Below are positions 1 to 28,300 of a DNA stretch of 40,314 nt, one piece after another. Position numbers and translations under genes: made by a program. Every line of letters begins with the position of its first letter. The first letter of the stretch is position 1. Under the pieces are notes generated by a model. That model was not told the origin of the DNA, ran no database searches, and worked only from the letters and a program-made list of their open reading frames with translations. This DNA is from a virus (Duplodnaviria > Heunggongvirae > Uroviricota > Caudoviricetes). The stretch lies in IMG/VR virus record IMGVR_UViG_2541047163_000016. One strand, written 5' to 3'.

Positions 1-520
1 CCGATATCAGCGGTAACGTGAATGCGAACTCCGGGACGCTCAACAACGTCACGATTAACGAGAACTGTCGGGTTCTGGGAAAACTGTCCGCGAACCAGAT
101 TGAAGGCGATCTCGTTAAAACAGTGGGCAAAGCTTTCCCCCGGGACTCCCGTGCACCGGAGCGGTGGCCATCAGGGACCATTACCGTCAGGGTTTATGAC
201 GATCAGCCGTTTGACCGGCAGATTGTTATTCCGGCGGTGGCATTCAGCGGCGCTAAACATGAGAGAGAGAGCATACTGATATTTACTCCTCATGCCGTCT
301 GATAGTGCGGAAAAACGGTGCTGAAATTTATAACCGTACCGCGCTGGATAATACGCTGATTTACAGTGGCGTTATTGATATGCCTGCCGGTCACGGTCAC
401 ATGACGCTGGAGTTTTCGGTGTCAGCATGGCTGGTGAATAACTGGTATCCCACAGCAAGTATCAGCGATTTGCTGGTTGTGGTGATGAAGAAAGCCACCG
501 CAGGCATCAGTATCAGCTGA
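1..520 (+). pseudogene. 3' end of a lambdoid tail-tip/host-specificity (J-like) gene, split across two reading frames
   Basis: ORF 18-302 (frame 0) and ORF 305-520 (frame 2) read as one protein C-terminus; frame-2 translation upstream of 305 ([15 protein letters not shown]...) continues it. The frames meet at (GA)5 at 261-270; removing one GA unit gives one continuous frame. 5' end is outside the window. J-like identity is from recollection of the lambda J C-terminus plus the lom-like gene on the other flank. Confidence 0.5.
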
Positions 521-550
521 ATTTTATAACCCATATACGGGCGCCAGAAA

Positions 551-640
551 TGTATAGCGCGGCGATTTTTTTGATACCGATTTGCATTTCATTTGATACC
601 GCTGAAAAACGCCGATACGCAACTTATTTGATACTAAATC
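551..640. repeat. Right-end (mom-proximal) cluster of putative transposase-binding repeats
   Basis: TTTGATACC at 570-578 and 592-600, TTTGATACT at 627-635, within ~85 bp of the terminus, like clustered R1-R3 sites of Mu attR. Confidence 0.55.
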
Positions 641-680
641 GGCGCTTTTCTTTTGAGTTTTAGAATGAGTTTTTAAGCGC

Positions 681-1418
681 TCATTCACTCTCTTTCAAAC
701 CAGTTTTAACTGTTTGTGGTTTTGGGTAAGGCTGGACTTTGAATAGCTTTGTGTTGAGGCGTTTTCTGGCCCTCTTGTTCAGAAACCGGATGTAACGAAA
801 CTGTCGGAACTTATGAACACTGGCTCTGTCAATATTAGCCCTCAGATGTTCACCTCGTTGTCCGCCTCGTTTAATGGCATTCCTGCAAATCTCGTGATAC
901 CACTCGCCATCAAGTTCATAGAATATTGATTCATGGCTGCCTACATAATCAAAATTGCTTGCCTGATACACGACACCAAGACAGCCACAACGCTCATCTG
1001 CAAACGACTGAACCCACTGTACCTGCGGATAAAGCTGCCTGATTAGCTTGAGCGCGTAACTGATTGCCCTTGATTCGGAGTTTCTCGGCATACAGTCATG
1101 CAGCCATAGCCGGTTAAGCTCCATATATTCTCGGTTCTGCGTACCCGTTACGACGCGTGCACCACTGTTTGGGTTAAGGGCGTAACCCCATTGCATTACG
1201 CCAACAAGTTCCCGTTCTGAAAATATGCCCAGATGAAGGTAGGAGTTATTTACGAAACGGTGGCTGTAATGTTTATTGACGATGACCAGTCTGGCCAGCC
1301 AGCAACTTATTGTCTCAACCCGCAACTCACGGGAGCCATAACCAACGATATTGTCGTTATAGCGAATAAGTTCAGGCGTGCTGATGATTCGGGATGTGAC
1401 TTGCTTTCTGTTCCCCAC
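681..1418 (-). CDS. mom: Mom-like DNA modification protein (GTG start)
   Basis: 245-aa ORF just inside the right end, overlapping the 3' end of the com-like gene by ~47 nt as in Mu; start codon is GTG (plus-strand CAC at 1416-1418) with AAGGA upstream. Call rests on synteny, not recognised motifs. Confidence 0.55.
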
Positions 1419-1572
1419 GACAGGATTTCCTTGTGTATGTGGGGTGCTCTGTGGCGCTCGGAGATGTGATTTGATTGAGGGTTTTACAGCGCGGACATTT
1501 TACTTCCAGATAACTGAAACTGGCCCGTGCCAGTAGCTTATTGCAGTGTCGGCACCGTATGTTTCGATACAT
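1372..1572 (-). CDS. com: Com-like zinc-finger translational activator of mom
   Basis: ATG at 1572 preceded by AGGAGG; product [14 protein letters not shown]...VKCPRCK has the CxxC...CxxC pattern and spacing recalled for Mu Com (IRCKNCNKLL...IRCPRCK); overlaps the mom start. Confidence 0.75.
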
Positions 1573-1615
1573 GACCGCATAACCTCCTGCTTTGTTGTTG
1601 ATGCCTTTCTCATGC

Positions 1616-1640
1616 AATCGATCGACAAAAACGATCGATT
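1616..1640. promoter_or_regulatory. Inverted repeat AATCGATCG-N7-CGATCGATT carrying two GATC (Dam) sites, upstream of com/mom
   Basis: GATC at 1620-1623 and 1633-1636 inside 9-bp inverted-repeat arms, 45-65 bp upstream of the com start; Mu mom promoter is known to be controlled through Dam sites. Confidence 0.5.
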
Positions 1641-1686
1641 CGATTTGTTTAATTGATACAACAAATAGATTGAAAAGTCATCAACA

Positions 1687-2151
1687 ATGATTCAGGGAGG
1701 TGATTATTTACTTAAAGAAAACGAAGAGTTAGGTGGTGAAAACGATCATAAAATGATCATTTTATTGACTTTTTATACAGTGAAGGTAGGATCACGCGTA
1801 TATGTAGTATGTTTCAAATCAACAGGATACTACATAAAAGTGAAACCCAGCATAGCTGGAACTATGCTGGGTCAATCTGTAAAAACTTGCATCAATGCTT
1901 TACTTCGAGCTCGTGGCGTATCCTATGATATTCCCCGGTCTCCTGTAAAGCAGAGATGCATAAAAAGGAGATCTTTATCATGGATGAAAGAGCCTGTTTG
2001 CCCTGCCTGTAAGACTCCCTTACAGCTCATCTATCGCCGTTCTCGATCTCAAAATGGCAAGACATACAAACCCAAAAATGCTTCCTGTTTCAGGATGCTG
2101 ATATGTCCTGCCTGTTCTCCCAGGAGGGAAAATACACAAAACGTGCATTAA
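1687..2151 (+). CDS. Hypothetical protein with C-terminal C4 zinc ribbon; start uncertain (1687, 1753 or 1984)
   Basis: Only sizeable plus-strand ORF in the cargo region; C-terminus CPACKTPL...(29 aa)...CPAC; AAGGAG at 1965-1970 precedes the in-frame ATG at 1984 (55-aa product); converges on the hairpin at 2161-2180. AT-richer than surrounding phage DNA. Confidence 0.35.
   Translation: MIQGGDYLLKENEELGGENDHKMIILLTFYTVKVGSRVYVVCFKSTGYYIKVKPSIAGTMLGQSVKTCINALLRARGVSYDIPRSPVKQRCIKRRSLSWMKEPVCPACKTPLQLIYRRSRSQNGKTYKPKNASCFRMLICPACSPRRENTQNVH
1846..1871 (-). terminator. Perfect 10-bp stem hairpin followed on the minus strand by a U-rich tract
   Basis: CCCAGCATAG-ctggaa-CTATGCTGGG; minus-strand downstream sequence is TTTCACTTTTAT. 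Lies inside the long version of ORF 1687-2151, which argues for the shorter 1984 start. Confidence 0.35.
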
Positions 2152-2160
2152 CAAACTCAC

Positions 2161-2180
2161 CCGGCAGGGAAACCTGCCGG
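2161..2180. terminator. Hairpin between convergent genes
   Basis: CCGGCAGG-gaaa-CCTGCCGG (8-bp stem, GAAA loop) between the stop of 1687-2151 (+) and the stop of 2190-2435 (-), with moderately U-rich flanks on both strands. Confidence 0.5.
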
Positions 2181-2189
2181 TCGGTATTG

Positions 2190-2435
2190 TTACATCATAG
2201 TACCGTCAGTTCCGGGCTGAACCGGCTCTGGTTGCTCTACGGGTTGAGGATCATTTTCCGTGCTGTTTTCAGCCGGAGAACGGCCAACCATTCGGGCCAG
2301 CACTTCATCAACATATGCGTCGATTTGTGCCTCAAAATCCTTGCGAACCTGCGCCTTCAGCACGCGGTTCACTTCTTCAGAATAAAGTGCCTGTTTGACA
2401 AGCTCTTCAGTAACCGTGCCTTTAATCTCTGGCAT
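2190..2435 (-). CDS. Hypothetical small acidic protein (cargo region)
   Basis: 81-aa ORF with AAAGGAGA ribosome-binding site 6 nt upstream of the ATG; no recognisable domain. Confidence 0.6.
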   Translation of the reverse strand: MPEIKGTVTEELVKQALYSEEVNRVLKAQVRKDFEAQIDAYVDEVLARMVGRSPAENSTENDPQPVEQPEPVQPGTDGTMM

Positions 2436-2470
2436 GAATATTCTCCTTTTGCAGGTATATTGCCCCGTTA

Positions 2471-2653
2471 TCAGAGCGGGGTCGGGTCGTTTGGGGATGA
2501 CGGTGCCTGTGCTGTTTTACTGAGTTTTTCAGCTGCCGCATCATCAATTTTACGGCGAATATAATTTCTGATGACCTTATAACCACCGCTCACCAGATAT
2601 AACGCACTGACCACAGCGCAGAAATAAAGCAGCATTGTATGAACGAATGTCAT
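2471..2653 (-). CDS. Hypothetical small membrane protein (cargo region)
   Basis: 60-aa ORF, AAGGTAAGG upstream of ATG; one hydrophobic N-terminal segment (MLLYFCAVVSALYLVSGG) then a charged tail. Confidence 0.55.
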   Translation of the reverse strand: MTFVHTMLLYFCAVVSALYLVSGGYKVIRNYIRRKIDDAAAEKLSKTAQAPSSPNDPTPL

Positions 2654-2766
2654 ATAACCTTACCTTTGATATTGACTACATAATTCGTTATCGGGTAAAA
2701 ACATCGAAGCGACTGATAACCACTCCTTCGGGAGTATTTTTATTTTCCTTTATGGGTTAGGTAGCT

Positions 2767-2801
2767 CCCGCCAGCCATATCATGACCGGCGGGATTTTTT
2801 T
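2767..2801 (+). terminator. Hairpin plus T7 run, plus-strand orientation, abutting the 3' end of the esterase-like gene
   Basis: CCCGCC...GGCGGG stem followed by TTTTTTT on the plus strand; the T-run overlaps the TAA of the minus-strand gene 2800-4839. Would block antisense transcription entering that gene. Confidence 0.4.
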
Positions 2802-4839
2802 ATTCTGTTACCGCTTTTTTCACTTCCACCACAATGCTGTCAATCAGCACCGGGTAAGTTGCATTTTTTGTGATATCCGTTACGCGGAGTTTGTCCACCG
2901 GGAAAGTTCCTACTGGTGACTGCGTCAGGGTAAACGCGGCACCATCCTGACCATCAATAACCGGAATAACCTGAAGGCTGTTATTTCCTGCAAAACGGAA
3001 GGCCAGCGTATGCCATTCATTATCAAATGCACCAAAGGTTCCCAGTTTCTGGTTATTTGTTGCCACTTTTGCATTGTGGTACATCACATTCAGGTCTTTT
3101 GCGTCTGTCTGGATGTAGAACGATGCCAGCAGATTATTCCCTGCATCCCCTGTCAGGGTGACACCCTGCGGCAGAGAGGAAACCGGCCAGTAAAGCCCCA
3201 TGACATACTGGTTTGCCACCAGGTCGCCAGGTACTTTAAAACGACAACTGATTAAACCACCATTTTTCAGCAGTTCAGCACCAGTACCGGCATCATGATC
3301 CAGATACCAAGATGATTTACCTGTTTCCTTGGTCAGTTTCATTGCCTTACCACCTGTGCCTCCTGCATCACTGATAATTTCAGCTTTACCGCCAGCCGGC
3401 TCCCAGCCCTGGGCTTTCAGATTTCCTTCTGACTCACTGACACGATAAGACAGCAGTGTTGTGGTTACTGCTTCAGTTTCTGAAGGTGACGGCACTGGTG
3501 CTTCAGTTTCAGAAGATGGAACATCGGCTTTTACTGTGGTTCGCCCCGCATGAGTCAGAACTGCCGTGGCCAGACGGTCGGAAATAATCCCACGACGTGC
3601 CCATGAACTGAAATGGCTGGCCCGGTCCGCAGATGTCCAGGTGGCGGCACTGTTACGCCACGTTGAGCCGTAATAACCAATGGATTCAATATCCGGGTCT
3701 TCTGCCGGATTGTTGGTGGGTACATTCGCGTCATTTTCATCTGTCATTAATGGAACGAAATGAATGTTTTTATCTGTTTTGTTTTTGTAGCCGCCATAGA
3801 TTGCCTGGTATGCCGGTTCATTTTTCTGTTTCCAGAAATACGTGGTATCGCCACAAATCCACGGAACGCCAGCAGCACTGCCACCGGTACACTGTTCCGC
3901 CTGTTCAGCCAGGTCTGCGCGGAATTTTTCCACCATCGCCAGAAACAGCGCGGAATGCTCCGTCGGCTTCGCATCAATATCAAACTCGCCCTGCATCCAC
4001 ACCACAGCAAGCAGGCGGTTTTTCGGGTTCTTCGCCAGTGCCGCTTTTGTCCGGCTGATTAAGTCCTTATACAGCGGCTTATCCACACCCCAGCGGGCTG
4101 AGTCCTCTGAAGCACCCGTGCTGTCACTGTACGTGCCGTCAGCACCCGCCGTGAATGCAGAACCACCACGGCAGCAGGGAACCAGCAGAATCCCCGCATC
4201 TGCCGGAATAAACGGCAGCAGTTTTTTGGCAATGTGAAGCCCCTGACCCACGGTGCCATATTGCCCTTTAGCCACATCCGCTTTCGGGTGATTTTTTCCA
4301 CTCATATCCTGCACATCATGCAGACAGTGGTCGGCCAGAATGATGTCGTTATACTGACAGGCTTTACCTCCCGGCGTGACTGTACTGCGACGGGCTAACT
4401 GCATAATACGCGGTTCGGGGCGGTCATATGTCTCCGGCAGTGGCAGACCTTCACCGTAAGCCATACCGTTTGACTGACCAGCAAGAACCACCACGTAATA
4501 CCAGGAAGGGGAGCTGGAAGCAGTTTCATTTCCTGACGGACGGGTATGTGTTTCAGCATTATCCCAGTCTGACGGTTCAGCAGTACCGGCAACATCAGCA
4601 CTTAACGGAATGACCGCACCAATACCCGCTCCGGTAATTTCCACACTCGGATCACCGGATACTGGCCTTACCCACAGGCAATCCCGTGTATTAAAACTGA
4701 TGAGACAGTCAGCAAATGTCATTCCTCCTTTTGTTTCGGCCGGAGGAAAGGGAGCCTCAAGAAATGCCGCTGTACCACCGGAAACTTTAACAGTAAAGTT
4801 TCCGGGCATTGATGATAGTTGAACCCATTTGGACGTCAT
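2800..4839 (-). CDS. Large cargo protein: SASA/SGNH-type carbohydrate O-acetylesterase-like domain with C-terminal beta-sandwich/lectin-like region
   Basis: 679-aa ORF with verified ATG; motif VVLAGQSNGMAYG resembles the GQSN(M) nucleophile motif of sialate O-acetylesterase (SASA) family enzymes; serine/threonine/proline-rich linker (...SETEAPVPSPSETEA...) before a C-terminal ~250-aa domain. Not part of the canonical Mu gene set. Confidence 0.55.
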   Translation of the reverse strand: MTSKWVQLSSMPGNFTVKVSGGTAAFLEAPFPPAETKGGMTFADCLISFNTRDCLWVRPVSGDPSVEITGAGIGAVIPLSADVAGTAEPSDWDNAETHTRPSGNETASSSPSWYYVVVLAGQSNGMAYGEGLPLPETYDRPEPRIMQLARRSTVTPGGKACQYNDIILADHCLHDVQDMSGKNHPKADVAKGQYGTVGQGLHIAKKLLPFIPADAGILLVPCCRGGSAFTAGADGTYSDSTGASEDSARWGVDKPLYKDLISRTKAALAKNPKNRLLAVVWMQGEFDIDAKPTEHSALFLAMVEKFRADLAEQAEQCTGGSAAGVPWICGDTTYFWKQKNEPAYQAIYGGYKNKTDKNIHFVPLMTDENDANVPTNNPAEDPDIESIGYYGSTWRNSAATWTSADRASHFSSWARRGIISDRLATAVLTHAGRTTVKADVPSSETEAPVPSPSETEAVTTTLLSYRVSESEGNLKAQGWEPAGGKAEIISDAGGTGGKAMKLTKETGKSSWYLDHDAGTGAELLKNGGLISCRFKVPGDLVANQYVMGLYWPVSSLPQGVTLTGDAGNNLLASFYIQTDAKDLNVMYHNAKVATNNQKLGTFGAFDNEWHTLAFRFAGNNSLQVIPVIDGQDGAAFTLTQSPVGTFPVDKLRVTDITKNATYPVLIDSIVVEVKKAVTE

Positions 4840-4938
4840 AATAATCAGCCTGTTCCTGAATAAACTGAATTATCATATCCACAGACCGATAAACGCCATT
4901 TTGCGTTAATTCAGTAAAGGCCCAACAAAGGGAGCGTC

Positions 4939-5499
4939 TTATTTTTCCGAAACGCTCGCAGGATAATAACGATAAAGGGTTGAAAGGCCGATATCAAAAA
5001 TAAGTGCCACCTGTCTTCGACTGACACCCCCGGCCAGTAAACGCCCGACCTGCTCGTATTGTTCCTGCGTGAGACGACGGGGTCTGCCGCCGGTTCGTCC
5101 CCTTTCACGGGCAGCTGCAAGACCAGCCCGTGTCCGTTCGACAATTAATTCACGCTCCATTTCTGCCAGCGCACCCATTATGTGAAAAAAGAAGCGCCCC
5201 ATGGGGGTTGACGTATCAATGTTGTCAGTAAGACTACGAAAATTTATCCCCTGTTGCTGTAATTCATCTGTCAGCGCAACAAGGTGGCGCATACTGCGCC
5301 CCAGCCTGTCCAGTTTCCAGACCATCAGTGTGTCACCGGGTTTTAGTTTCTTCAGTGCCCGCTTCAGTCCCGGCCGCTGTGTCGTTTTACCACTCATTTT
5401 ATCTTCAAAAATCTGCTCACATCCTGCACATTCCAGCGCATTTCTTTGTAAACCTGTGTTCTGGTCATTTGTTGATACGCGTATATAGCCAATCAGCAT
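4939..5499 (-). CDS. gin: Gin/Hin/Pin/Cin-family serine DNA invertase
   Basis: MLIGYIRVSTNDQNT...VWKLDRLGRS...FFHIMGALAEMERELI... closely matches the recalled Mu Gin sequence; lies next to a gix-like site and the tail-fibre module. Confidence 0.92.
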   Translation of the reverse strand: MLIGYIRVSTNDQNTGLQRNALECAGCEQIFEDKMSGKTTQRPGLKRALKKLKPGDTLMVWKLDRLGRSMRHLVALTDELQQQGINFRSLTDNIDTSTPMGRFFFHIMGALAEMERELIVERTRAGLAAARERGRTGGRPRRLTQEQYEQVGRLLAGGVSRRQVALIFDIGLSTLYRYYPASVSEK

Positions 5500-5553
5500 G
5501 TATTTACCTTCCTTAAAAAGAGGTGGAAAGGCCTTTTAAAGCAGATATACGGC

Positions 5554-5579
5554 ATCCCTGAAACCTCGGTTTACGGGAT
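5554..5579. other. gix-like recombination site (gin-proximal)
   Basis: ATCCCTGAAACC-TC-GGTTTACGGGAT: 12+2+12 bp pseudo-palindrome resembling the Mu gix site TTATCCAAAACC-TC-GGTTTACAGGAA; lies in frame at the 5' edge of the silent tail-fibre cassette. Confidence 0.6.
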
Positions 5580-5924
5580 ACTGTAAACAGGGCCGCGAAT
5601 GCCCTGCCATCGAACGGAGCGGCTGTTGCAGCGAATAAACTCGCCACTCCAAGAAATATTAATGGTGTCCCATTTGACGGAACGCAGGATATAAATATTA
5701 CATCGGGGATGACGCAGTCTGTGGCTGACTCACGTTATGTTCAAAGCATTCGAAGAGGTTCAAGGTCAACGATTGGAATGCAATATAATATTTTTGAGGT
5801 TCCTGACGGATGCGTACTTACAGGGCTTGATGTCGCTGGTGATGGTAATGCAACGGTAACCGCATATTATCGACCTGTTCAGTTTCTGATAGATGGTTCG
5901 TGGAAAACAGCTTCCAGCGCATAA
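5562..5924 (+). other. Promoterless alternative tail-fibre C-terminal cassette (S'v-like)
   Basis: In-frame from the stop at 5559-5561: GLRDTVNRAANALPS...ATPRNINGVPFDGTQDINITSGMTQSVADSRYVQ... parallels residues 178-240 of the expressed tail fibre and then diverges; ends ...YYRPVQFLIDGSWKTASSA. Confidence 0.6.
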
Positions 5925-6003
5925 AAGTGCAGTAGTTCAAAAAACAGATTATCTGAATAAATATATGATGATTTTGTCTTTTCAACAAAAACAAGGTGAA
6001 ATA

Positions 6004-6525
6004 ATGGAGCTTATTAACGTAAAACGATATTACCCGGAACACAAACCCTATGGTGAGGATGTTCAGTATTTCCAGAGTGAGGACGGAAGGGATTTTTATG
6101 AATCTATCCCGCTTTTCACAAAGAAATACAAACTCTGTATTTCGCCTGTAACGGGTATTATCTGCTCTGTTGCTGAAGATGTCTCTGCTTTATATCCGGC
6201 AGGTTTTACTGTTGTTGAAGTGGACGAACTGCCGGAAGGTGTGAATATTGACGGTAACTGGCAGTTTTCTGATGGCCTGATATCAAAGGTGCCGGTAAAC
6301 TGGAAGACGGTTGCTGAAAAGCGCCGCTCATCGCTGCTCCAGGAAGCCAACGAAACTGTGGATGACTGGAAAACGGAATTAAAACTGGACATGATTAGCG
6401 ATGAAAATAAATTACAGCTGACGCGCTGGATGGCGTATATCCGACAGCTTAAAGAAATGCACTTTAATGATATTGCCAGTGAGGGGCATTACCAGGCGAT
6501 TCCCTGGCCGGAAAAACCGGAATAA
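6004..6525 (+). CDS. Tail fibre assembly protein (U'-like), belonging to the silent cassette
   Basis: 173-aa product from the ATG at 6004 (AAGGTGA upstream); size, position after a fibre C-terminus and ...HYQAIPWPEKPE ending fit tail-fibre assembly (Tfa/U) proteins. Alternative start at 5965. Confidence 0.65.
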   Translation: MELINVKRYYPEHKPYGEDVQYFQSEDGRDFYESIPLFTKKYKLCISPVTGIICSVAEDVSALYPAGFTVVEVDELPEGVNIDGNWQFSDGLISKVPVNWKTVAEKRRSSLLQEANETVDDWKTELKLDMISDENKLQLTRWMAYIRQLKEMHFNDIASEGHYQAIPWPEKPE

Positions 6526-6530
6526 TTCAG

Positions 6531-6555
6531 AGGGTGCATTCAGCACCCTTTTCTG
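6531..6555. terminator. Bidirectional hairpin terminator between convergent tail fibre and U' genes
   Basis: AGGGTGC-attca-GCACCCT followed by TTTCTG on plus and preceded by an A-rich tract; sits between stop 6523-6525 (+) and stop 6560-6562 (-). Confidence 0.6.
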
Positions 6556-6559
6556 TGGT

Positions 6560-7471
6560 TTACACTGAACTTACCGTTCTCCAGGCATTATTAATATAAA
6601 TCTGAACCGGGCGATAATAGACCCCACCGATATTGTCCGCAGACCGGGAGCCGGTTTCCTGCACGTTAATTCCGGAAAGCATACAACCGGAAGGTGCGCT
6701 GTAATTCCATGACATTTCATTGCCTCCGGGTGAATGATAGCTCTGTGCTCCAAGCTGAACATTCTGTACATACCGGCCATCTGCGGTTGACTGCGTCATT
6801 CCTGACGTGATGTTGATATCCAGCGTTCCGTCAAAAGGAACACCATTAATATTTCTTGGGGTGGCGAGTCTGTTTGCTGCCACGGCGGTTCCACCCGATG
6901 GCAGGGCATCAGCAGCCTTATTTACCGTTTCCCGTAAACCAACGTTATCGATAAAAGCGCCTTTATCCGGAATGTCTGCGCCGTTCTGCTCCCTGCGCAG
7001 GTAACGGTTATCACCTTCGCTTTTGCTGTAAACATCCAGATTATTACGGGCGGTTCCCGCATTCTCCAGGTCGGCAAGGTTCTGATCCTTCGCCAGAGCA
7101 TTAACGTCACCGGGACCAAGACTGTTTTTTGTGGCAAGCGCCCCAAGACCAAGATAACCACGGGCAAGACGCTGGGCTTCCGCACCGGCATCAGCAATTT
7201 CTTTCAGGTTGTTTTTCCGGGAAAAGGCATTCGCAGCGATAATGGCTTTAATGGACAGCGTAAGCTGGTTTAACTGCGCCTTATCCGGCTGAATACTGGC
7301 TTCAGCCAGAATATTCAGCAGTTCGGCCTGGAGAATATTCAGCCAGTCCTGACCAATCCAGCTGATACCTTTTTGTCCGTCACCTTCGGTAAACCAGGTG
7401 GTGGTATTACTCTGCGCCGGTGCCAGCGCAGGCATATTCGCCACGCCGGAATTATTATCAACATGAAACAT
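6560..7471 (-). CDS. Tail fibre protein (S-like), currently expressed variant
   Basis: ATG at 7471 overlaps the upstream stop (TAATG) and is preceded by GAGGAG; C-terminal ~127 aa parallels the silent cassette; ends ...GGVYYRPVQIYINNAWRTVSSV. The ORF-track start at 7525 lies inside the upstream gene. Confidence 0.75.
   Translation of the reverse strand: MFHVDNNSGVANMPALAPAQSNTTTWFTEGDGQKGISWIGQDWLNILQAELLNILAEASIQPDKAQLNQLTLSIKAIIAANAFSRKNNLKEIADAGAEAQRLARGYLGLGALATKNSLGPGDVNALAKDQNLADLENAGTARNNLDVYSKSEGDNRYLRREQNGADIPDKGAFIDNVGLRETVNKAADALPSGGTAVAANRLATPRNINGVPFDGTLDINITSGMTQSTADGRYVQNVQLGAQSYHSPGGNEMSWNYSAPSGCMLSGINVQETGSRSADNIGGVYYRPVQIYINNAWRTVSSV
6929..6954. other. gix-like recombination site inside the tail fibre gene
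   Basis: Read on the minus strand: TTATCGATAACG-TT-GGTTTACGGGAA (10/12 and 11/12 matches to the Mu gix half-sites); encodes FIDNVGLRE at tail-fibre residues 173-181, exactly where homology with the silent cassette begins. Confidence 0.5.
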
Positions 7472-17393: not shown

Positions 17394-17954
17394 TTACAGT
17401 TCCTCCGGCGGTTCGACCGCCGTTGTCGTGTTCCCCGGCAAATCAATATGTGCCTCAAACGGCGGCGTACCGGGCGGCTCCACAAAGGTTTCGTAATGAC
17501 GCAGGAAGTCGTCCAGCGAGCTGGTATCGGTCAGCGGTGCGATCATTTCCTCGCAGGAGAAATAAAGCGCATACATCACCGCACCACTGTCCGCCTGGGT
17601 TTCGGTGTAACCGTTGACCGCCTTTTCAAAGTAAAGCGGTGAGGTTTTTTCTGTTCTGAAGCCGTTAAGCACGGCAATCAGCCGGGCCACAATCTGATAC
17701 AGTCCGGGACGGCTGGCCTCACGCCCGTTGAGCATGTCGCCGATGACGTAGAACACCCAGTGACTGACCAGGCGACCACGGGTACGGCCTTCACCGGCAC
17801 CCAGCCAGGCAACGTAGATCGCCGGGGCGTTAATCAGCATGGTGCGCAGTACGCTGTCGCTCCAGTCGCCGGGATGCGTGTCAACAGACACCAGTTCATT
17901 CCCGAAATACTCACGGATACGGGCGATGTATGCCTGTTCGGTTTCCGTAATCAT
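17394..17954 (-). CDS. Head-tail region protein (Mu gp37-like)
   Basis: 186-aa ORF in conserved position between head and tail genes. Confidence 0.55.
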   Translation of the reverse strand: MITETEQAYIARIREYFGNELVSVDTHPGDWSDSVLRTMLINAPAIYVAWLGAGEGRTRGRLVSHWVFYVIGDMLNGREASRPGLYQIVARLIAVLNGFRTEKTSPLYFEKAVNGYTETQADSGAVMYALYFSCEEMIAPLTDTSSLDDFLRHYETFVEPPGTPPFEAHIDLPGNTTTAVEPPEEL

Positions 17955-18370
17955 ATGAAGCCCTTCTGGTTGCGCCCGAATACCGCTGCATCAGACTGAA
18001 CCTGTGGTAAATCCCCGGATTCAGGGGCCGCACCGTTCGTATCCACACCGACCGGCACATTGCCGTTCATGACATCTTTCAGCCAGGCCAGCGCTTCACG
18101 GTAACGGTCACGCGCCTGATCGGAGGCTCGCTGATCGCACAGGTAATAAAAGGCAATCGCGCAACAGTGCTGAACAAGAACGGCCGGAATAACCTCCAGC
18201 GGCAACGTGTAACGGGCGGACAGATAGCTGTCGATAAGGGCTGACGCATCTGTCAGCGCCCGGTTCAGCTTGCGCGTGTCCGGCTCATCCGAACGGGGCA
18301 CAGCCAGTAACGGCCTGAGCAAATCCTCGCGGTAACGCGCCCGCATATCGGTTTCAGTGGCGTAATTCAT
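17951..18370 (-). CDS. Head-tail connector-region protein (Mu gp36-like)
   Basis: 139-aa ORF; start codon verified at 18370. Confidence 0.55.
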   Translation of the reverse strand: MNYATETDMRARYREDLLRPLLAVPRSDEPDTRKLNRALTDASALIDSYLSARYTLPLEVIPAVLVQHCCAIAFYYLCDQRASDQARDRYREALAWLKDVMNGNVPVGVDTNGAAPESGDLPQVQSDAAVFGRNQKGFI

Positions 18371-18783
18371 GCACGGGCCTGTTCCGCTTTGTTACCGGTC
18401 TTTTTCCGGGGAGCATCCTGTCCGGCTTCGGCTTCGGCTTCGGCTTCGGCTTCGGCTTCGGCTTCGGCTTCGGCTTCGGCTTCGGCTTCGGCTTCGGCTT
18501 CGGCTAAATCTGTACCGGCCACTGCATGAACCACACCCGCCACGCTCCCCGCATCATCAGCAGACGTCTGTAGTATTCGCACAGTGAGGCATGGCTCCTC
18601 CTCCAGTCGGGCAAGCTGCTCCGGGGTGACCTCAACCTGCTGACGTCCACGCGTGAACAGGAACCCCGCACGACGAAACGCCGAACGACTGCAACGCACT
18701 TCTGCCAGCACCGTGACAGAATTGTCACCACTGACCTGAAGACCTGAATCATCTGTTGCTGCCACAGTGTGATGTTCATTCAT
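18367..18783 (-). CDS. Head-region protein with internal (Ala-Glu)14 repeat
   Basis: 138-aa ORF just downstream of the major head gene; residues ~95-122 are AEAEAE... encoded by the hexanucleotide array. Confidence 0.6.
   Translation of the reverse strand: MNEHHTVAATDDSGLQVSGDNSVTVLAEVRCSRSAFRRAGFLFTRGRQQVEVTPEQLARLEEEPCLTVRILQTSADDAGSVAGVVHAVAGTDLAEAEAEAEAEAEAEAEAEAEAEAEAEAGQDAPRKKTGNKAEQARA
18423..18505. repeat. Hexanucleotide tandem repeat (CGGCTT)13-14
   Basis: 13 perfect CGGCTT units plus one imperfect unit; in-frame (GAA-GCC = Glu-Ala) within gene 18367-18783. Confidence 0.9.
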
Positions 18784-18826
18784 ATTTGCCCTCCGCAGGG
18801 GCCGGGCCGTAAGCCCGGCTCACCGT

Positions 18827-19774
18827 TTACAGATAATCCGCGACAACCAGCTCCAGCTTACCCTTCATCTCGTTAGAGACGGTTGCGTTTCCGTCTGCGA
18901 ACAGTTCACGCTCCAGCAGCTGCACCGCCTGTTTTTCCAGCGAGGTGGGGACAACAATATGGGTGGGTTTAATGCCGAGTTTGCGGCCACCGTCAGCGGT
19001 AAATTCGCGCATGGCTGACCAGCCGTGCCACAGTGCATCCAGCGTCAGCGGTGACTGCATCATGTAGGCCATCTGCCAGAAGCCGTAGCCCACATTGCGA
19101 CGGGCGGATGCACCAAACACAAATTCGTTATCGGTGAATGCGCGACCTTCATCGACTTTGGTCTGGGCAACCAGTTCAGCCTTACGGCGATCCTGATAAA
19201 TCAGCGGTTTTACCGCGCGGGAGCAGTCAAGCAGATACCAGGCCGGACCGCTGTAATCAGCCTGTGCGCCGACAGAGCCGGTTTTTGCCACAAACATATT
19301 GCTGACCATCTGCGCATCCCCGGAGCCATCCACTTTGGGGTAAACCGGATGTTCGGTATCAAAGAAGTTCTGACCGTCATAGCAGGCCGCACTGATCCCG
19401 TCACGCAGGGCAGCAAAGACCAGCTCATCCGGTTGTACCGCCGCAGCGCGCCCCATCTCCTGGAACAACGGGGAATAAATACCGAGGTTGTCGTCTTCGA
19501 AGTCATCGCGGCTAATGGCGACAGTGCCTTCAAAAGTTTTGTTCACGATGGCATAGCCATAGGCTTTCATCTTCTCGATGACGCGGGAGCCGATCCACTC
19601 ACGGAACTGCGGGAACTGCCCCAGCCAGCCGTAGGTGTTGGATTTCGATGTGGAGGGCACGGTCATCGCAATTTTTTTATACTGCGACGGGGCCATGGAC
19701 ATCCCGGCCTGAAAATCAGAACGGTAGCCCGTCATCAGGGCTGTGATCATCGCCGGTGTAATCGGGGTAGGCAT
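18827..19774 (-). CDS. Major head (capsid) protein, Mu T-like
   Basis: 315-aa ORF following the I-like gene with TAATG stop/start overlap. Confidence 0.8.
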   Translation of the reverse strand: MPTPITPAMITALMTGYRSDFQAGMSMAPSQYKKIAMTVPSTSKSNTYGWLGQFPQFREWIGSRVIEKMKAYGYAIVNKTFEGTVAISRDDFEDDNLGIYSPLFQEMGRAAAVQPDELVFAALRDGISAACYDGQNFFDTEHPVYPKVDGSGDAQMVSNMFVAKTGSVGAQADYSGPAWYLLDCSRAVKPLIYQDRRKAELVAQTKVDEGRAFTDNEFVFGASARRNVGYGFWQMAYMMQSPLTLDALWHGWSAMREFTADGGRKLGIKPTHIVVPTSLEKQAVQLLERELFADGNATVSNEMKGKLELVVADYL

Positions 19775-20898
19775 TATTGCATTTCCTCTTTCATTTTCAG
19801 GAACTCGGCTTCGGTTTTACCCAGCAGTTTGGCGGCCGCGATATCTTCAGCCGACAGCGCAGCGGTGGCAGTCTTTTTATCCGGCACGGTCACGGTGTCG
19901 GTCTGAAGAGAGGTCAGGGCCGCAACCGGCTGGCGGGCGTCAAGCTGTGCAGAAAGTGCCGCAACGCCAATCTGCCCGCCCAGTTGTTCCAGATAGCCGC
20001 GTTCGCTTTTGAAGATGCGCCCTTCGGATTCAGCCTTGTCCAGCACCTGCTCCAGCGTGGTGCTGCCGTGCTGCGCCGACAGCGCAACGTATTCGGTACG
20101 CAGGGCGTTATACGTTTCAACGGGCACGTATTTCGTCAGATCAATAATGCCGCCAGCCGGTGTGCCTTTTGCGGTTTCCAGCTCTGCCGACAGACTGGCG
20201 ACCTGTGTTTTCAGGTTGTCGTGTGCATCCGCACGGGTTTTGATCCCGGTGAGGGCAGACAGCGCCGCCGTGCCCAGCTCCGGCGTAAATTCGTCACCGT
20301 CAGCCACGGTCAGACCGAGCGCCGTCAGCAACTGGCGTAATTGCTCATTCATGGAGGTATCCTTTAAAGGAGGGTTTAAGGCGTTATAAAGGTCATCCGC
20401 CGACAGCGCGGCGACAGGATTCATGCCGGTCAGACCGGGGTCACCGGTAATAGCCAGCATCCGAAGTTCGACAGGTTCGCCGGTGTTCTCGTCATAGCCA
20501 ATCACCGGTGAAAACCAGGGGAATTCGTTATTACGCAGATGTTCAAGGGCCGGAGGGTTCCACTTCGGGCGCACCTCGAAGCCACGCTCTTCACTGAAGC
20601 GAAAATTCTCCGGTGAGGCCATCACAAAACCGGCAGCCGGTGCCTGATGCCCCTTAATCAGGGTCTGGTGGTTGTAGTCAATTTTCACCGGCTGATTGAG
20701 CGCCACAACCCGGGATACCATGCGCTCAACGGTCGCACGGTTAATCAGCCAGCCCTCGGCCGGTTTTTCCGGGCGACCGTCACGGGCCTTTACCCGACCG
20801 GCTGGCATGATCTGACACCAGTCACCGTCCCCGTCTGCGGACAGGCTGATGGCATTCAGAATGGCATAAGCAAGTTTGGGCGTGTTTTTCGTCTTCAT
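19774..20898 (-). CDS. Head protease/scaffold protein, Mu I-like
   Basis: 374-aa ORF; first gene after a 175-bp intergenic region, as for the Mu I operon. Confidence 0.75.
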   Translation of the reverse strand: MKTKNTPKLAYAILNAISLSADGDGDWCQIMPAGRVKARDGRPEKPAEGWLINRATVERMVSRVVALNQPVKIDYNHQTLIKGHQAPAAGFVMASPENFRFSEERGFEVRPKWNPPALEHLRNNEFPWFSPVIGYDENTGEPVELRMLAITGDPGLTGMNPVAALSADDLYNALNPPLKDTSMNEQLRQLLTALGLTVADGDEFTPELGTAALSALTGIKTRADAHDNLKTQVASLSAELETAKGTPAGGIIDLTKYVPVETYNALRTEYVALSAQHGSTTLEQVLDKAESEGRIFKSERGYLEQLGGQIGVAALSAQLDARQPVAALTSLQTDTVTVPDKKTATAALSAEDIAAAKLLGKTEAEFLKMKEEMQ

Positions 20899-21044
20899 TC
20901 CGGCAGCATAAGCCGGGAATTTTCAGGGCGGGTTTTGCGGGATTTCAGGAAGTGCTTCCAGGGGAAAAATACAAAGGCGCTTCACGCAGATTTTAAAGCC
21001 CGTTAAATACAGGTTAGAAAATCACGACACGCGCCTGAAGGGGG

Positions 21045-21069
21045 TAAGGTAATGCATTTGCATACCTTA
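21045..21069. promoter_or_regulatory. 25-bp near-palindrome in the intergenic region upstream of the I-like gene
   Basis: TAAGGTAATGCATTTGCATACCTTA: outer 6-7 bp arms plus inner ATGC/GCAT pairs; begins 6 nt after the G-like stop; no U-tract follows on either strand. Confidence 0.3.
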
Positions 21070-21074
21070 AACAA

Positions 21075-21548
21075 TTAAGGCGTTTCTGTGGCCTTTTTAA
21101 AGCGTTTTCTGATTTCGTCCATGATCTCCTGCTCTGCCACCTGATCAAAGCCCATATACGGGCGTGCGCCAATGGCCGCCGGTCCCGGTGGCATACCAGG
21201 CAGGCCACCCCACTGATGAATGGCCGCATAAGGCTCATTTGATCCAATCAGCGCCCAGGTATCGCCATAATCCGTGGTCAGGCGTCGGGCCAGATCGCCG
21301 TTCAGCGTCAGGATTTTGCCGGGCATGTATCCCTTACGGGTACGCCACTTGCGGTAAGGATCTGACCAGTCATGCCAGCGTTCGCCGTCCGGCTCTTTTT
21401 CCTGTTCAAACGCCATTTCTGACGATGACAGAAGACTCGCCGCCACACTGCGGGCCAGGTCTTTCCCTCCACCCACAAACTGAAGCCGGGCAAAGACCCG
21501 CTGGAGACGCGTAACGTCAACAACGACAGCGGCATCAATGGATGACAT
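21075..21548 (-). CDS. Virion morphogenesis protein, Mu G-like
   Basis: 157-aa ORF between the F-like and I-like genes. Confidence 0.65.
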   Translation of the reverse strand: MSSIDAAVVVDVTRLQRVFARLQFVGGGKDLARSVAASLLSSSEMAFEQEKEPDGERWHDWSDPYRKWRTRKGYMPGKILTLNGDLARRLTTDYGDTWALIGSNEPYAAIHQWGGLPGMPPGPAAIGARPYMGFDQVAEQEIMDEIRKRFKKATETP

Positions 21549-21669
21549 ATTGCCTCCGCATAAAGGATGAATATAAAATAAACAGGCGGTCAGTGTACGC
21601 TTAACTGGTAAAGTCGGTGCCTGCCTCCGGGTGGATCATGTATGCGGGTTCAACCCCCGCCACTGACCG

Positions 21670-23001
21670 TTAATCAATATCTCCTTCCAGTACCTCAAGC
21701 ATTCCACCCCGGATATCCGATTTCAGCTTATCCATATTGATAACCCGGTAAGCATTCACAATCACATCCAGTTTATCCGGCTGACGCTTCAGGCTGTACG
21801 GCGCATTAACGGCAATCTGCACACTGCTATCCTTACTTTCCACGATATACATCAGATTGTTGTGGCGTTTGTCCCACAGCACCGCTTTTGGCTTTGCCAG
21901 CATTGCCGGTAATCGACCGAAATCCTCCGGCGTCAGGGCGATACCGTCATTCTGATGTTTCATGCTGTCCGCATGGAGCACATTTTTACCGCTCATCGCC
22001 AGCAGGCGGGCCGGTGGCGTTCCCGTCCGGCTTTCCACCGCCTGCGCAATGCTTTCGGTCATAAAGCCCAGCGTGCGGATATCGTTACCGCCTCGCCGGG
22101 TTTTCATGATGTTTTTTGCCCAGATGCGGAACGCCAGCTGCCGCTCCGGGCTGTTGTTCATCTCCTGCACTACCATTTCCCGCAGCGCCGGGCTTTTCAC
22201 CTCGATCAGTTTACGGATCAACGCCTGGTCTGTGCCGAACGCCGCCGAGCCGGGGTTATATGACCAGCCCACATCCGGTGTCATGGTTCTGGTGCCATCT
22301 GAATATGTGGTCACCGGCATTTCTCTGACTTCTCCGGTCTGCTTATCCACGCCAGCCTCAACATTGCGGGTGGAAAGATGATCCTGACCGGATGAAACGG
22401 ATAACCCCATTGCATCCAGACGGGTCTGAGACAATGGCCGGACACGGCAGCGGCAGTTCCAGCCATTGGGTGGGTAGTGTGTATTCCAGAACGGATCGTC
22501 ATAGCGGAATACCTGCCCGTTAAGGGCGGAATGCGCCGGGCGGGTGCGGCTGTCCATCACCGCCACATACTGCCAGAACGGATGCGTGTCCGTGTTGTTC
22601 ATCATCTGCGTGTAACGCCCGGCATTGTAAGCCACGCGGGTGTTCACGTTGTAAATCAGCGCCAGACGGCGGGGACTGCCCAGTTGCACTTCTTCTGCGT
22701 TACCGGCGCTGTCCACCACAATCTGCTTTCCCCACCATCCCAGCTTTTGCAGGCGGGGTGTCAGTGTGCGGATAAATGCTTTCTGTGAAATCCCCTCATC
22801 AACAGCACGCTGCACTTCCGCCTGTAGTGTGGTCAGTACGTCCAGGCGTGCCACTTTTGCCGCCGTGAATGAACGGGCATGAACATCCGCGTCTGTTTCG
22901 AACCAGTTCCAGCTGATATGCGCCCCTTTGGCGCGGAAGTATGCCACCGCCTCTTTTGAGGGAAGCGTGGCGGCATAACCTAAATCAATCCCCTGTGCCA
23001 T
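21670..23001 (-). CDS. Head morphogenesis protein, Mu F-like (gp30)
   Basis: 443-aa ORF directly after the portal gene. Confidence 0.75.
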   Translation of the reverse strand: MAQGIDLGYAATLPSKEAVAYFRAKGAHISWNWFETDADVHARSFTAAKVARLDVLTTLQAEVQRAVDEGISQKAFIRTLTPRLQKLGWWGKQIVVDSAGNAEEVQLGSPRRLALIYNVNTRVAYNAGRYTQMMNNTDTHPFWQYVAVMDSRTRPAHSALNGQVFRYDDPFWNTHYPPNGWNCRCRVRPLSQTRLDAMGLSVSSGQDHLSTRNVEAGVDKQTGEVREMPVTTYSDGTRTMTPDVGWSYNPGSAAFGTDQALIRKLIEVKSPALREMVVQEMNNSPERQLAFRIWAKNIMKTRRGGNDIRTLGFMTESIAQAVESRTGTPPARLLAMSGKNVLHADSMKHQNDGIALTPEDFGRLPAMLAKPKAVLWDKRHNNLMYIVESKDSSVQIAVNAPYSLKRQPDKLDVIVNAYRVINMDKLKSDIRGGMLEVLEGDID

Positions 23002-24583
23002 CCAGCATCCCCTTCATTTCCGCAGCAAACATGGCATCACTGAGCAGCGTCATCAGGCGGGAATCATCCATTTCACGGTAAAGGGCAGGCAGGTCTGCCA
23101 GTGCCTCCGCCAGCCCCCGCGTTCTGATGGCTTCAATGACCGGCTCCAGTACCGGGTCGATGGCCTCCTGTAACCGGCGGGCAGGCACCGCATCCCCCAT
23201 GTCGTCCAGTTCATCTCGGGGGCTGCTCTTCGCTTCCGGCAGTCTGGCAGCCAGCGCTGTCTGCTCTGTCTTCTCCTGTTTTTCCGGTGGCATCTCTTTG
23301 TCTGTCTGAGCAGGTTCATTGCCACTCTGACGGACACGGAAGATGGCTTCACCGGGGGCAGGCTGTGGAATACCGGTCTGCTCCCGCACCCAGGGATCAG
23401 GAATATCCATCCCCGTACTGAGCTGCATCACCGCACTGGTGATTTTGGTGATATCCCCCGGCTCTTTTGTCTGGAAACAGATACGCGGCAGGCGACGGAT
23501 ATCAATGGCGTGGGCGGTGTTCAGGGCATACAGCGGATACACCAGATCGCGGTTCAGCGTGGCGGCCAGCTGACGTAAATCAGAATCCCTGATTTCCCGG
23601 CGCACCTCGTTATGCACTTCACCCAGCGAACGTGCGCCCTTGTCTCCGGCTTCCGTGGTCAGCGTGCCGCCGAGGATAGCTTTGGAGATGGAACGCTCCC
23701 CCCACGAAATCATGGTTTCAAACGGATCGGCCTGACCGTTCGCTGCCGCCTGAAACTCCAGCGACATCCCGGCCGGGATGATCCCGCCTGTACGTCGCCC
23801 GATATCCATCACCGCCCGCATCAGGGCGCTTTTCTGCTCCGGTGTTGCCCCGGACGGGTATTTACCGACCTTCATCGGCAGGCCGTACACCTCCAGAAAT
23901 TCAGCCAGATCGCGCACGGAATAGTTTTTGAAAATGAACGGCCAGATAAGCGTTCTGACAAGCCCCGTCGCACCACCGTAGCCAGTGCGTGAACGCGACT
24001 GATGCACTATCCAGCCAAAGGGCTGAAACGCCACCCCGGCATGGCTGCCGTCACGCAGCCGCAGTTCGCTCAAATCATCCGGGTTAAGGCAGAAATGCCC
24101 GCTGTCACGCCAGCGGATGGCGCGGATGATGTGCATTTTACCGAGCATCCCGTGCTCAATCTCCATGCAGGAATAGCCTTTCAGGATGGCATCGGTGGCA
24201 TCAAACAGCATGGCATCAAACCAGTCGGCGGAATGCAGGTATTCGTCGAGCATTTCCGCGTCCTTTTTCTCATTCGCGCTGGCGTTCGGGGGCGGCTCAA
24301 TACTCCAGGGCACCCCCTGAATGGCAAGACGTCGCTTGCCCAGCTCTGCAAAAAGATGGGTATCCTTTTCTTCAATGTCAGCGGCCAGATCGGACTGGGC
24401 AATCAGATCGCCACGTTCAGCCCCGCGAAGGCACTGTGCCGCCCGGTTCGGGGTGATACCCGAGGCCGGATGTTCAATATAACGGCTGGCAATCTGCGGA
24501 ATATCCAGCACGGCACTCTGCATCTCCGGGTCAAAGGAGAAAGGTTTTCCGTCAAGATCAATTATGCGTCCCACTACCAGCAC
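22985..24583 (-). CDS. Portal protein (Mu gp29-like)
   Basis: 532-aa ORF directly after the terminase large subunit gene; GTG start. Confidence 0.8.
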   Translation of the reverse strand: MLVVGRIIDLDGKPFSFDPEMQSAVLDIPQIASRYIEHPASGITPNRAAQCLRGAERGDLIAQSDLAADIEEKDTHLFAELGKRRLAIQGVPWSIEPPPNASANEKKDAEMLDEYLHSADWFDAMLFDATDAILKGYSCMEIEHGMLGKMHIIRAIRWRDSGHFCLNPDDLSELRLRDGSHAGVAFQPFGWIVHQSRSRTGYGGATGLVRTLIWPFIFKNYSVRDLAEFLEVYGLPMKVGKYPSGATPEQKSALMRAVMDIGRRTGGIIPAGMSLEFQAAANGQADPFETMISWGERSISKAILGGTLTTEAGDKGARSLGEVHNEVRREIRDSDLRQLAATLNRDLVYPLYALNTAHAIDIRRLPRICFQTKEPGDITKITSAVMQLSTGMDIPDPWVREQTGIPQPAPGEAIFRVRQSGNEPAQTDKEMPPEKQEKTEQTALAARLPEAKSSPRDELDDMGDAVPARRLQEAIDPVLEPVIEAIRTRGLAEALADLPALYREMDDSRLMTLLSDAMFAAEMKGMLDGTGD

Positions 24584-26238
24584 CCCCGATCAAATTCATG
24601 ATATGCCTCATCGTCATCACGATAACCGCCCTCCATGGCCCGCGACCGCTCCGGCAGCGCCTGGCAGGCTGATTCATCCAGGATAAAGCCCTCCATGTAT
24701 GACGCCCGGTTTGCCATACAGAGCGCCACGGCAAAATCACCATGGCGGCGGGCGTTCACAGCTGTTGCGTTCTGGTCCTTCGTACGCCCCTTGTCGATTT
24801 GCGGGATACCGTTCACCACCTTCACATGGCGCAAATCATCAAGCGTGGTCTGATGGCGGGCGACGAGGATATTCTGATCCTCAAACTCGGCCTTCAGTTT
24901 TGGCATCCACTCGCCGTACCACTTCGGCGATAACATCACGCAGTCGATGATGTCCGGGCCAAAGGCCAGCAGCGCGGCTTCGGCCAGATAGCCGCCGTTA
25001 CCGGTGGCGTCGAACGCCGCACCGACCAGCGCCGGAACGCGGGTCAGGATGTACATCATCACCTGCTCCTGCTGGGCATACGGCAGGTTGCGCAGCTCCA
25101 CGCGAAACACCTCGCGTTTTGCCAGGGATTCAGTGATTTCCAGCAGCACAAAGCAGGAGAGGTCACCGGTGCGGGCAAAGTCTTCCCCGAAGCTGAAGCG
25201 GGAACGGGGATTTAACGCCTCTAAAAGCGGTTTTAAATGTTCTTCACACCAGGTTAAAACCTCCGATTCACGCAGCCATGCGGCACGGCTGATGAAGTCG
25301 TCCGGGGCTTCAAACGTCAGAATCGGGATGTCGCGGATCATCGCCATTTCAATAAGCGCGTGAGGAATATAGGCACCGCCGGATTTTTTCGGGATACAGC
25401 CGTATTCCTCGTCGGCATCCTCACGGGTCGGGGCGTTTTTGTAGAGATCATCACGCCACTTCTGCTCGCTTTCCGGTGACCATTCGCGGCCGGTGACATA
25501 ACAGATACGACGGTACAGCCCGTCCGCAATGGCATCATCCAGGGTTATGCGGTGGACACTGTAATCCTTGCGTCCCTCGCGGGCTTCCTGAATGTACTGA
25601 TTAAACAGATTATCGACGCCGTTATGCGTGGAGATAATACGCACGCGCGCGCCCCACATGGTGAGCGCCATTGCCGCCTTGAGAAGCTCATCCAGTGACT
25701 CGTGGAACGCGGCTTCATCAATCACCACATCCCCCTGAAGGCCGCGCAGGTTTGACGGACGGGAAGACAGTGCCTGAATTTTGAATCCACTGTTCGGAAA
25801 GCGGATCATGTAGGTCAGAATTTCTTCTTTTTTATCCCGATCCCAGAAGGTCTGCTCATACACATCAGCATCGGCCAGCTGGTTAAAGGCACGGGAGAAC
25901 AGTGCGCAGGCAGAAATATATTCCAGCGCCATCTCCTGCTTTGACCCCACATAAAACACATTACGGCCACCACGACGCTTAGGCTTTGCGGCGGTAATGA
26001 CGTTACGCCCGGCTTCCGCCCAGGTAAGCCCGGTGCGGCGGGATTTTTCCGCGATGCAGACCTCACTTTCATCCTCAAACCAGCGGGCCTGATAATCCAG
26101 AAACACCGGCATATCACCGGGCAAATCAAGGCTGTCCGGCACATCCACGCCCAGCAGGGCTTTTTCACCGGCCAGATCAATTTTGCGGGTGGAGACGGTA
26201 TTCGTCAGTAAGGGGGAGAGTTCTTCGGCGTTATTCAT
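24574..26238 (-). CDS. Terminase large subunit (Mu gp28-like)
   Basis: 554-aa ORF; ATG overlaps the stop of the upstream small gene (ATGA); position between the small-terminase-like gene and portal. Confidence 0.8.
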   Translation of the reverse strand: MNNAEELSPLLTNTVSTRKIDLAGEKALLGVDVPDSLDLPGDMPVFLDYQARWFEDESEVCIAEKSRRTGLTWAEAGRNVITAAKPKRRGGRNVFYVGSKQEMALEYISACALFSRAFNQLADADVYEQTFWDRDKKEEILTYMIRFPNSGFKIQALSSRPSNLRGLQGDVVIDEAAFHESLDELLKAAMALTMWGARVRIISTHNGVDNLFNQYIQEAREGRKDYSVHRITLDDAIADGLYRRICYVTGREWSPESEQKWRDDLYKNAPTREDADEEYGCIPKKSGGAYIPHALIEMAMIRDIPILTFEAPDDFISRAAWLRESEVLTWCEEHLKPLLEALNPRSRFSFGEDFARTGDLSCFVLLEITESLAKREVFRVELRNLPYAQQEQVMMYILTRVPALVGAAFDATGNGGYLAEAALLAFGPDIIDCVMLSPKWYGEWMPKLKAEFEDQNILVARHQTTLDDLRHVKVVNGIPQIDKGRTKDQNATAVNARRHGDFAVALCMANRASYMEGFILDESACQALPERSRAMEGGYRDDDEAYHEFDRGCW

Positions 26239-26819
26239 CAGGCTTTACCCAACAGAATTCCCTTAATACGGGACTCAAGCTGTTCACTCATCCCGTCCAC
26301 GCCGCGCAGCTCGTCGGTAACCGCGTTTGCCATCTCTTCAGCAAATGCAGCCCGGATTTCTTTTTCACGTTTAATGCTGCGCTCGGCGGCACTTTCCGCA
26401 CGCTGTGCTGACAGGAGGATGTCCTTAATAAGACGCATATCCACGTCGCTGTCACTGTTCAGGGATTCGGTCGCGGCACGCAGACGGCGGTACATCAGGG
26501 CGCGGGACATCTCCAGAATCAGTGCCGTGGTTTCACCGGTCGGCTTGTCCCCCAGTTCGGCCATCATGGCTTTTGTCTGCTCGCGTAAATCACGCAGGTT
26601 ACGGGCAATCAGCTCATTACGGGAGGCTTCCCGGCTGATGGCCGCCGGTGAAAGCTGCTGCTCTTCCGGCAGGCCTGCCTCGCGGATCAGACGGTTGATT
26701 TCCTCGCGGATCTGGACCTGCGTCAGACGTTTTTCACGCAGCATTTCCAGCAGTGGCTTACGGATGCTGTCGGGGAGCAAATCCACCTTGCGCACGCGGC
26801 CACGCGTCGGCTTGTCCAT
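26238..26819 (-). CDS. Putative small terminase / DNA-binding protein (Mu gp27-like)
   Basis: 193-aa charged, helix-rich ORF immediately upstream of the large terminase gene. Confidence 0.55.
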   Translation of the reverse strand: MDKPTRGRVRKVDLLPDSIRKPLLEMLREKRLTQVQIREEINRLIREAGLPEEQQLSPAAISREASRNELIARNLRDLREQTKAMMAELGDKPTGETTALILEMSRALMYRRLRAATESLNSDSDVDMRLIKDILLSAQRAESAAERSIKREKEIRAAFAEEMANAVTDELRGVDGMSEQLESRIKGILLGKA

Positions 26820-26821
26820 CG

Positions 26822-27625: not shown

Positions 27626-27635
27626 ACCTTTTTCC

Positions 27636-28236: not shown

Positions 28237-28300
28237 AGGACACCCCGTAACAGCAGTACCGCACACAGCAGCGCTATCATGAGCGGTCGCCAGAAGCGGT

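Follow-up and report, generated by a model that had tools for sequence, protein, structure and literature searches.

J, the tail tip protein of the lambdoid phages, is essential for adsorption. Another of their host-recognition genes, the side tail fibre gene stf, is known for a similar lesion: laboratory lambda PaPa differs from Ur-lambda by a frameshift in stf, which all of its descendants have inherited. As in the locus that we describe here, a small indel truncates the receptor-binding part of a lambdoid host-recognition gene, but the gene is stf rather than J, and the phage is viable, stf being dispensable. Frame-shifting changes in a short tandem repeat within a surface-recognition gene are also familiar from the contingency loci of Haemophilus, Neisseria, and Campylobacter.

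The closest described relatives of our locus are the J gene of E. coli O157:H7 strain Sakai, which lies within "prophage Sp12, lambda-like phage", and the pseudogenes that PGAP labels "frameshifted gpJ" in other O157:H7 genomes. In Sakai, J is split into ECs_2235, ECs_2234, and ECs_2233. Asadulghani et al. 2009 (PMC2669165) catalogued the defects of the 18 Sakai prophages. Their Table 1 marks the "Host Specificity" function of Sp12 as D (defective); the repressor, integrase, recombination, portal, and head functions of Sp12 are defective as well, and Sp12 was not excised, replicated, or packaged. The J defect is already on record, in annotation as well as in that study.

We analyzed a window of 40,314 nt, which is an entire draft WGS contig (AVQS01000054.1, from assembly GCA_000461955.2). 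Its features are listed in Table 1. In this window, J is a pseudogene and not a functional gene. We put the probability at roughly 90% that its (GA)5 tract is a pseudogenising +2 insertion in the J of an Sp12-type defective lambdoid prophage, which arose in one old slippage event and has been inherited since.

Table 1. Coordinates of J, lom, and the Mu-like insertion in the 40,314-nt window.
Feature	Position	Strand	Remarks
3' part of the lambdoid tail-tip/host-specificity gene J	1..302	+	Contig begins within the gene; identified by RefSeq gpJ, PDB lambda J, and Pfam PF12421
(GA)5 tract, a +2 frameshift	261..270	+	Intact homologues have (GA)4; from alignments and allele counts
Remainder of J in the +2 frame, uninterrupted, last 82 residues (HTDIYSSC...ATAGISIS)	271..520	+	Stop at 518-520
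Left half of the J intrinsic terminator hairpin (GGGCGCCA arm, GAAA loop)	539..552	+	Cut by the Mu-like insertion
Sp18-type Mu-like prophage, 39,316 bp	553..39868	-	mom/com end at the left, repressor/transposase end at the right; lies between J and lom
Right copy of the AAATG target-site duplication	39869..39873	+	Followed by the right terminator arm and T-run, 39874-39885
lom (Ail/Lom outer-membrane protein gene) of the same lambdoid prophage	39909..40314	+	Runs off the contig end

Read directly, window positions 258-272 are cat GAGAGAGAGA gc. Frame 0 (codons from base 3) passes through the GA run to a premature TGA at 300-302, which is followed by TAG at 303-305, and the last 10 codons before the stop (270-299) are out of frame and encode aberrant residues. 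The frame that starts at 263 is open up to the natural stop codon of J, with the ending ...ATAGISIS. When one GA (261-262) is removed in silico, the result is a single open frame of 171 amino acids that corresponds to the C-terminus of J. The initial annotation, which described a tail-tip (J-like) gene that is broken by one extra GA unit and would be continuous with (GA)4, was correct on both points, including the tract, its coordinates, and both frames. It also proposed that the receptor-binding C-terminus is truncated by ~85 residues; it is truncated, and the count is 82 (171 residues after repair minus the 89 up to HERE). An intact J would be a single frame of about 1,130-1,160 codons, and here that frame is broken at the GA run. 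Dinucleotide repeats of at least five units occur nowhere else in the 40.3-kb window, and a (GA)5 run is by itself statistically unremarkable. We consider the observation solid because the break in the frame coincides exactly with a one-unit difference in length from the intact homologues.

Along its whole length, the repaired C-terminus can be aligned to residues 961-1131 of J, the tip attachment protein of lambda (PDB 8iyk, E = 6.3e-41). Its closest solved relative is not lambda J itself but the gpJ of A8 (9wca_J, E = 1.3e-63). It also matches the full length of Pfam's Ig_GpJ_C family (PF12421; profile positions 1-135 of 135, residues 41-171) at 133.3 bits and E = 8e-39, where the cut-off for the family is 26.2 bits. 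Pfam describes PF12421 as the [quoted passage not shown]. Homologous DNA is annotated as gpJ in RefSeq in thousands of E. coli genomes. The window and lambda J (PDB 8iyk and 8xcj; PF12421) have in common the homology at the C-terminus, a match to the whole domain profile, and the order of J and then lom. In contrast to lambda J, the domain in the window is cut by the frameshift, which falls after residue 89: about 49 of the ~131 residues of the receptor-binding domain are kept and 82 are lost.

When the same gene is compared across related strains, as the initial annotation suggested, the intact homologues have (GA)4 and the O157 relatives have (GA)5, like the window. For instance, gpJ of E. 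coli Ecol_316, which is an intact CDS, has (GA)4 and is otherwise identical to the window over 141 nt; across the 552 nt of the J end, there are 2 mismatches. J is also intact in the atypical O157:H7 strain LSU61 (3,474 nt, with (GA)4). All 53 of the deposited phage records that carry the J module have (GA)4, including phages grown on E. coli C. Their best matches were 98-nt alignments with (GA)4, and (GA)5 was found in none of the 53.

To count alleles in complete genomes, we used a query of 100 nt centred on the tract and a threshold of at least 99% identity. The (GA)5 stretch was found in 217 complete E. coli records, so the allele is shared by hundreds of genomes that were sequenced independently. 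Among the matches listed (60 of the 217), all were 100% identical over the 100 nt, and every stated serotype was O157. The carriers include Sakai, EDL933, TW14359, EC4115, Xuzhou21, and 86-24. In IMG/VR, the exact context was found with (GA)4 in 103 contigs and with (GA)5 in 11, and synthetic queries with (GA)3 or (GA)6 found no contigs. In the complete genomes, a synthetic (GA)6 query matched 2,713 records, none of which has that allele, and a synthetic (GA)3 query turned up its allele in 4 records; we looked at two of these. In SCU-484, nearly all of the neighboring genes are "frameshifted" in the assembly, and its (GA)3 is probably an assembly error. NCCP 13946 (NZ_CM167685.1, piece 827-4297) has an O157 Sp12-type J with (GA)3 whose aligned bases are all the same as in the Sakai J. 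The length of this gene is now a multiple of three, yet ~2.1 kb between its two lesions is out of frame. This (GA)3 is either a real contraction of 4 nt or an assembly error.

The reference copies of the Sp12 gene have a second lesion. In both Sakai and strain 3384, J is 3,475 nt, and relative to LSU61, it has the 2-nt GA insertion at nt 3216 and a deletion of one C at nt 1110. The deletion lies upstream, in a part of the gene that is outside the window. Sp12 in these two strains is further marked by disrupted int and cI and by a cluster of nleG genes downstream of the tail fibre genes. Over the J end, 5 of 550 positions in the window do not match Sakai Sp12, and 2 do not match strain 3384. 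Overall, the J and lom ends are 99.1-99.6% identical to the Sp12-type copies, and lom is nearer to the Sp12 copy than to the Sp4-like copy. The resident prophage is probably of the Sp12 type; this assignment rests on the 552-nt J end and the 446-nt lom end, with the 5' part of J lying outside the window.

Like Sakai Sp12 and the PGAP pseudogenes, the window has (GA)5, the same 100 nt around it, and the same terminator and then lom. In Sakai, the tail of the stretch that matches window 271-520 is annotated as a separate CDS of 71 amino acids (ECs_2233). The window differs from Sakai Sp12 in having a Mu-like prophage between J and lom and an additional -1 frameshift in lom. The allele in the window is ordinary, because it is an inherited and annotated defect that is common to the Sp12-type prophages of O157:H7.

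The Mu-like prophage, which is complete, is not part of the J defect, and it explains the neighborhood. Homology to the J-lom region of the lambdoid prophage ends at window position 552 and restarts at 39869. The sequence AAATG is present at 548-552 and again on the far side of the element, and it occurs once in the uninterrupted locus of Sakai, which identifies it as a 5-bp target-site duplication. Without the insert, the two flanks join up just as they do in Sakai Sp12, in the order J, terminator, lom, as expected for a lambda-type J at the end of its tail operon; the tail genes upstream lie beyond the contig. The J terminator in Sakai is GGGCGCCA-GAAA-TGGCGCCT-TTTTT, with an 8-bp stem and a T-run (-15.7 kcal/mol, z = -3.9), and the target of the insertion is the loop of this hairpin. 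Among 5,426 complete E. coli genomes, none has this J/Mu-like junction. Two other insertions, at different chromosomal sites and with their own flanks, have the same ends as this element (TATAGCGCGG...CCTGGTTAC): one adjoins gsiB in O157:H7 F1273, and the other adjoins folA in an O111:H8 strain, with AATGA as the 5-bp duplication. The outermost bases of the element are TATAGCG...GGTTAC; the ends of phage Mu are TG...CA.

How did (GA)5 arise and spread? The initial annotation proposed a slipped-strand +2 event. The gain of GA relative to intact J is observed, and slippage is its likely mechanism: the (GA)4 run, which encodes His-Glu-Arg-Glu-His, would have gained one unit by slipped-strand mispairing during replication. 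We infer a single origin of (GA)5, followed by vertical inheritance through the O157:H7 clade. A ribosome that reaches the expanded run would read 10 wrong codons and then stop. The product would be short of 82 of the ~131 receptor-binding residues, would not bind the receptor, and would presumably not support adsorption. The expansion was probably fixed in a prophage that was already non-functional, or soon to be so, and it probably persists because the prophage was already non-functional and nothing selects for repair. The downstream frame is open and nearly identical to that of intact genes, as would be expected if the event is relatively recent or if this module continues to be homogenised.

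Some of the spread may have been horizontal. Over the last ~500 nt of J, we found 0-3 mismatches per 300 nt between genes that have 50-98 mismatches per 300 nt upstream, so resident prophages appear to exchange or homogenise the receptor-binding module of J. Strain PV15-279 (NZ_AP018488.1) has (GA)5 in an Sp4-like prophage whose neighbors are tccP2 and a tRNA-Ser. This J (piece 1041-4518) is ~30% divergent over nt 1800-3000 and has its own second lesion, a 2-nt insertion of GT at nt 629; the tail fibre gene of the same prophage is frameshifted too. The (GA)5 allele could have moved between resident prophages by recombination within the near-invariant 3' module. Both recombination with an Sp12 J and independent recurrence would fit the PV15-279 allele, because J genes that are very divergent elsewhere (20-30%) become almost the same in their final ~500 nt. 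Together, (GA)5 in PV15-279 and (GA)3 in NCCP 13946 imply some recurrent slippage or some conversion between prophages. A stronger form of this idea is that (GA)4 is a recurrent hot spot for slippage, and that its expansion was fixed or copied in both Sp12-type and Sp4-like prophages because silencing of the tail tip is advantageous. We consider this improbable. If it were true, silencing would favor the host or competing prophages, for instance by keeping defective particles from adsorbing to sister cells.

Before accepting a pseudogenising insertion, we considered whether the extra GA might be an artefact of a draft contig, either a miscall or a consensus that was collapsed from several copies of J at the contig end. 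The initial annotation raised the possibility of a sequencing or assembly error, and the contig gives some reason for caution. At both of its ends it runs into multi-copy prophage sequence (J and lom), of which a genome can have as many as 15 copies. Such repeats are where short-read assemblies usually break, which is why the contig ends at J and lom. There is also a private 1-bp deletion in lom, 131 nt from the other contig end, and errors in tract length do exist in public data, as in SCU-484. However, the same allele is present in the 217 complete genomes, including Sakai and EDL933, and it would be expected in any O157-type genome. The interior of the contig is accurate: several independent complete O157:H7-type genomes match it at 100.0% identity throughout the 9,869 nt of positions 30000-39868, and the large Mu-like ORFs are all intact. 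Given this accuracy and the ubiquity of the allele, an artefact is very unlikely. We think it no more plausible that the (GA)n tract is a contingency switch, which would turn the receptor-binding end of J reversibly on and off. A repeat within a host-range gene is the classical layout for such a switch; the tract lies inside the coding region, and a change of one unit shifts the frame. Three lengths, (GA)3, (GA)4, and (GA)5, are seen in public genomes, two different prophage backgrounds carry (GA)5, and the J of NCCP 13946 departs from the Sakai Sp12 J in tract length alone. Yet 4-5 units is short for efficient slippage, and the 217 matching records all have the same tract length, with no flickering among close isolates. 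(GA)6 is absent from both collections, and of the two (GA)3 records that we looked at, one is error-ridden. Also, judged from the reference Sp12 copies, the gene is not otherwise intact: given the non-repeat deletion at nt 1110, a return to (GA)4 would not restore J. Finally, Sp12 cannot excise or be packaged. Three of the four defining features of phase variation fail (the tract is short, its length is constant, and reversion would not rescue the reference gene). Compared to the contingency loci of Haemophilus, Neisseria, and Campylobacter, the J tract has few units and is clonally fixed, and the reference prophage has a second, irreversible lesion and is immobile.

Lambda-type tail operons do use a -1 ribosomal frameshift elsewhere (G/GT). 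This raises the idea that full-length J is made from the (GA)5 gene by a programmed -1 frameshift or by transcriptional slippage on the GA run, and indeed the frame would be regained by a -1 shift anywhere in 261-299, beyond which it is wholly open. We give this almost no credence. By inspection, there is no slippery heptamer of the form X XXY YYZ in frame 0 between 240 and 302. The intact homologues, including all of the deposited phages, encode J in one ORF that has (GA)4, and a two-frame layout is therefore not conserved. Transcriptional slippage is described for long homopolymer runs and is not known to occur at GA runs of 10 nt. And even if the frame were restored at the tract, the upstream -1 deletion in the Sp12 J would still break the protein.

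The J lesion belongs to a large set of small defects, catalogued in 2009, because of which most lambdoid prophages of O157:H7 are not infectious by themselves. Genes broken in this way are divided by annotation pipelines into two or three "host specificity" CDSs; this contig should be annotated with one J pseudogene, not two genes. (GA)5 could also be used as a lineage marker for the Sp12-type allele of J. Beyond this bookkeeping, the J lesion matters little. The strain has an O157:H7-type genome in which an active Mu-like phage hopped into a resident prophage.

The lom gene on the far side of the Mu-like prophage has its own lesion. One G is missing between 40183 and 40184, which leads to a premature stop at 40203-40205. 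This G is present in the lom of every close relative with a complete genome, so the deletion is private to the contig. Either a real mutation or an error could account for it.

The Mu-like prophage encodes mom and com (with a Pfam match to Mom), an invertible tail-fibre segment with its recombinase, contractile-tail and head genes, and Mor, Gam, MuB-like, and MuA-like proteins, as well as a repressor region. Its early region is shared with F1273 (O157:H7), the two being 100.0% identical across 9,869 nt. A cargo region (window 2190-4839, on the minus strand) separates the invertible tail-fibre segment from com/mom; it encodes a 679-amino-acid protein with SASA (sialate O-acetylesterase) and DUF6645 domains and then has DUF1378 and DUF826 genes. 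Cargo of this kind, with a SASA-type esterase and DUF genes, is usually found in the late region of Stx phages. We considered whether the sequence to the right of J is a Stx-phage late region, with its esterase, DUF826, and DUF1378 genes, and rejected this: the genes are cargo of the Mu-like prophage.

RefSeq annotates a "tRNA-OTHER" in the Mu-like prophage of the O111:H8 strain (piece 21206-21286), which corresponds to about 21590-21670 in our window. Across the whole window, ARAGORN and Rfam (at the gathering thresholds) found no tRNA or structured RNA. The O111:H8 prophage is 98-99% identical to the one in the window except for two segments of the window that have no match in it (30697-31365 and 38943-39694). 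The first of these lies in the early region. The second lies over a putative repressor ORF (38884-39597) that has only weak matches to helix-turn-helix (HTH) domains, and this difference in sequence suggests that the two prophages may be of different immunity types.
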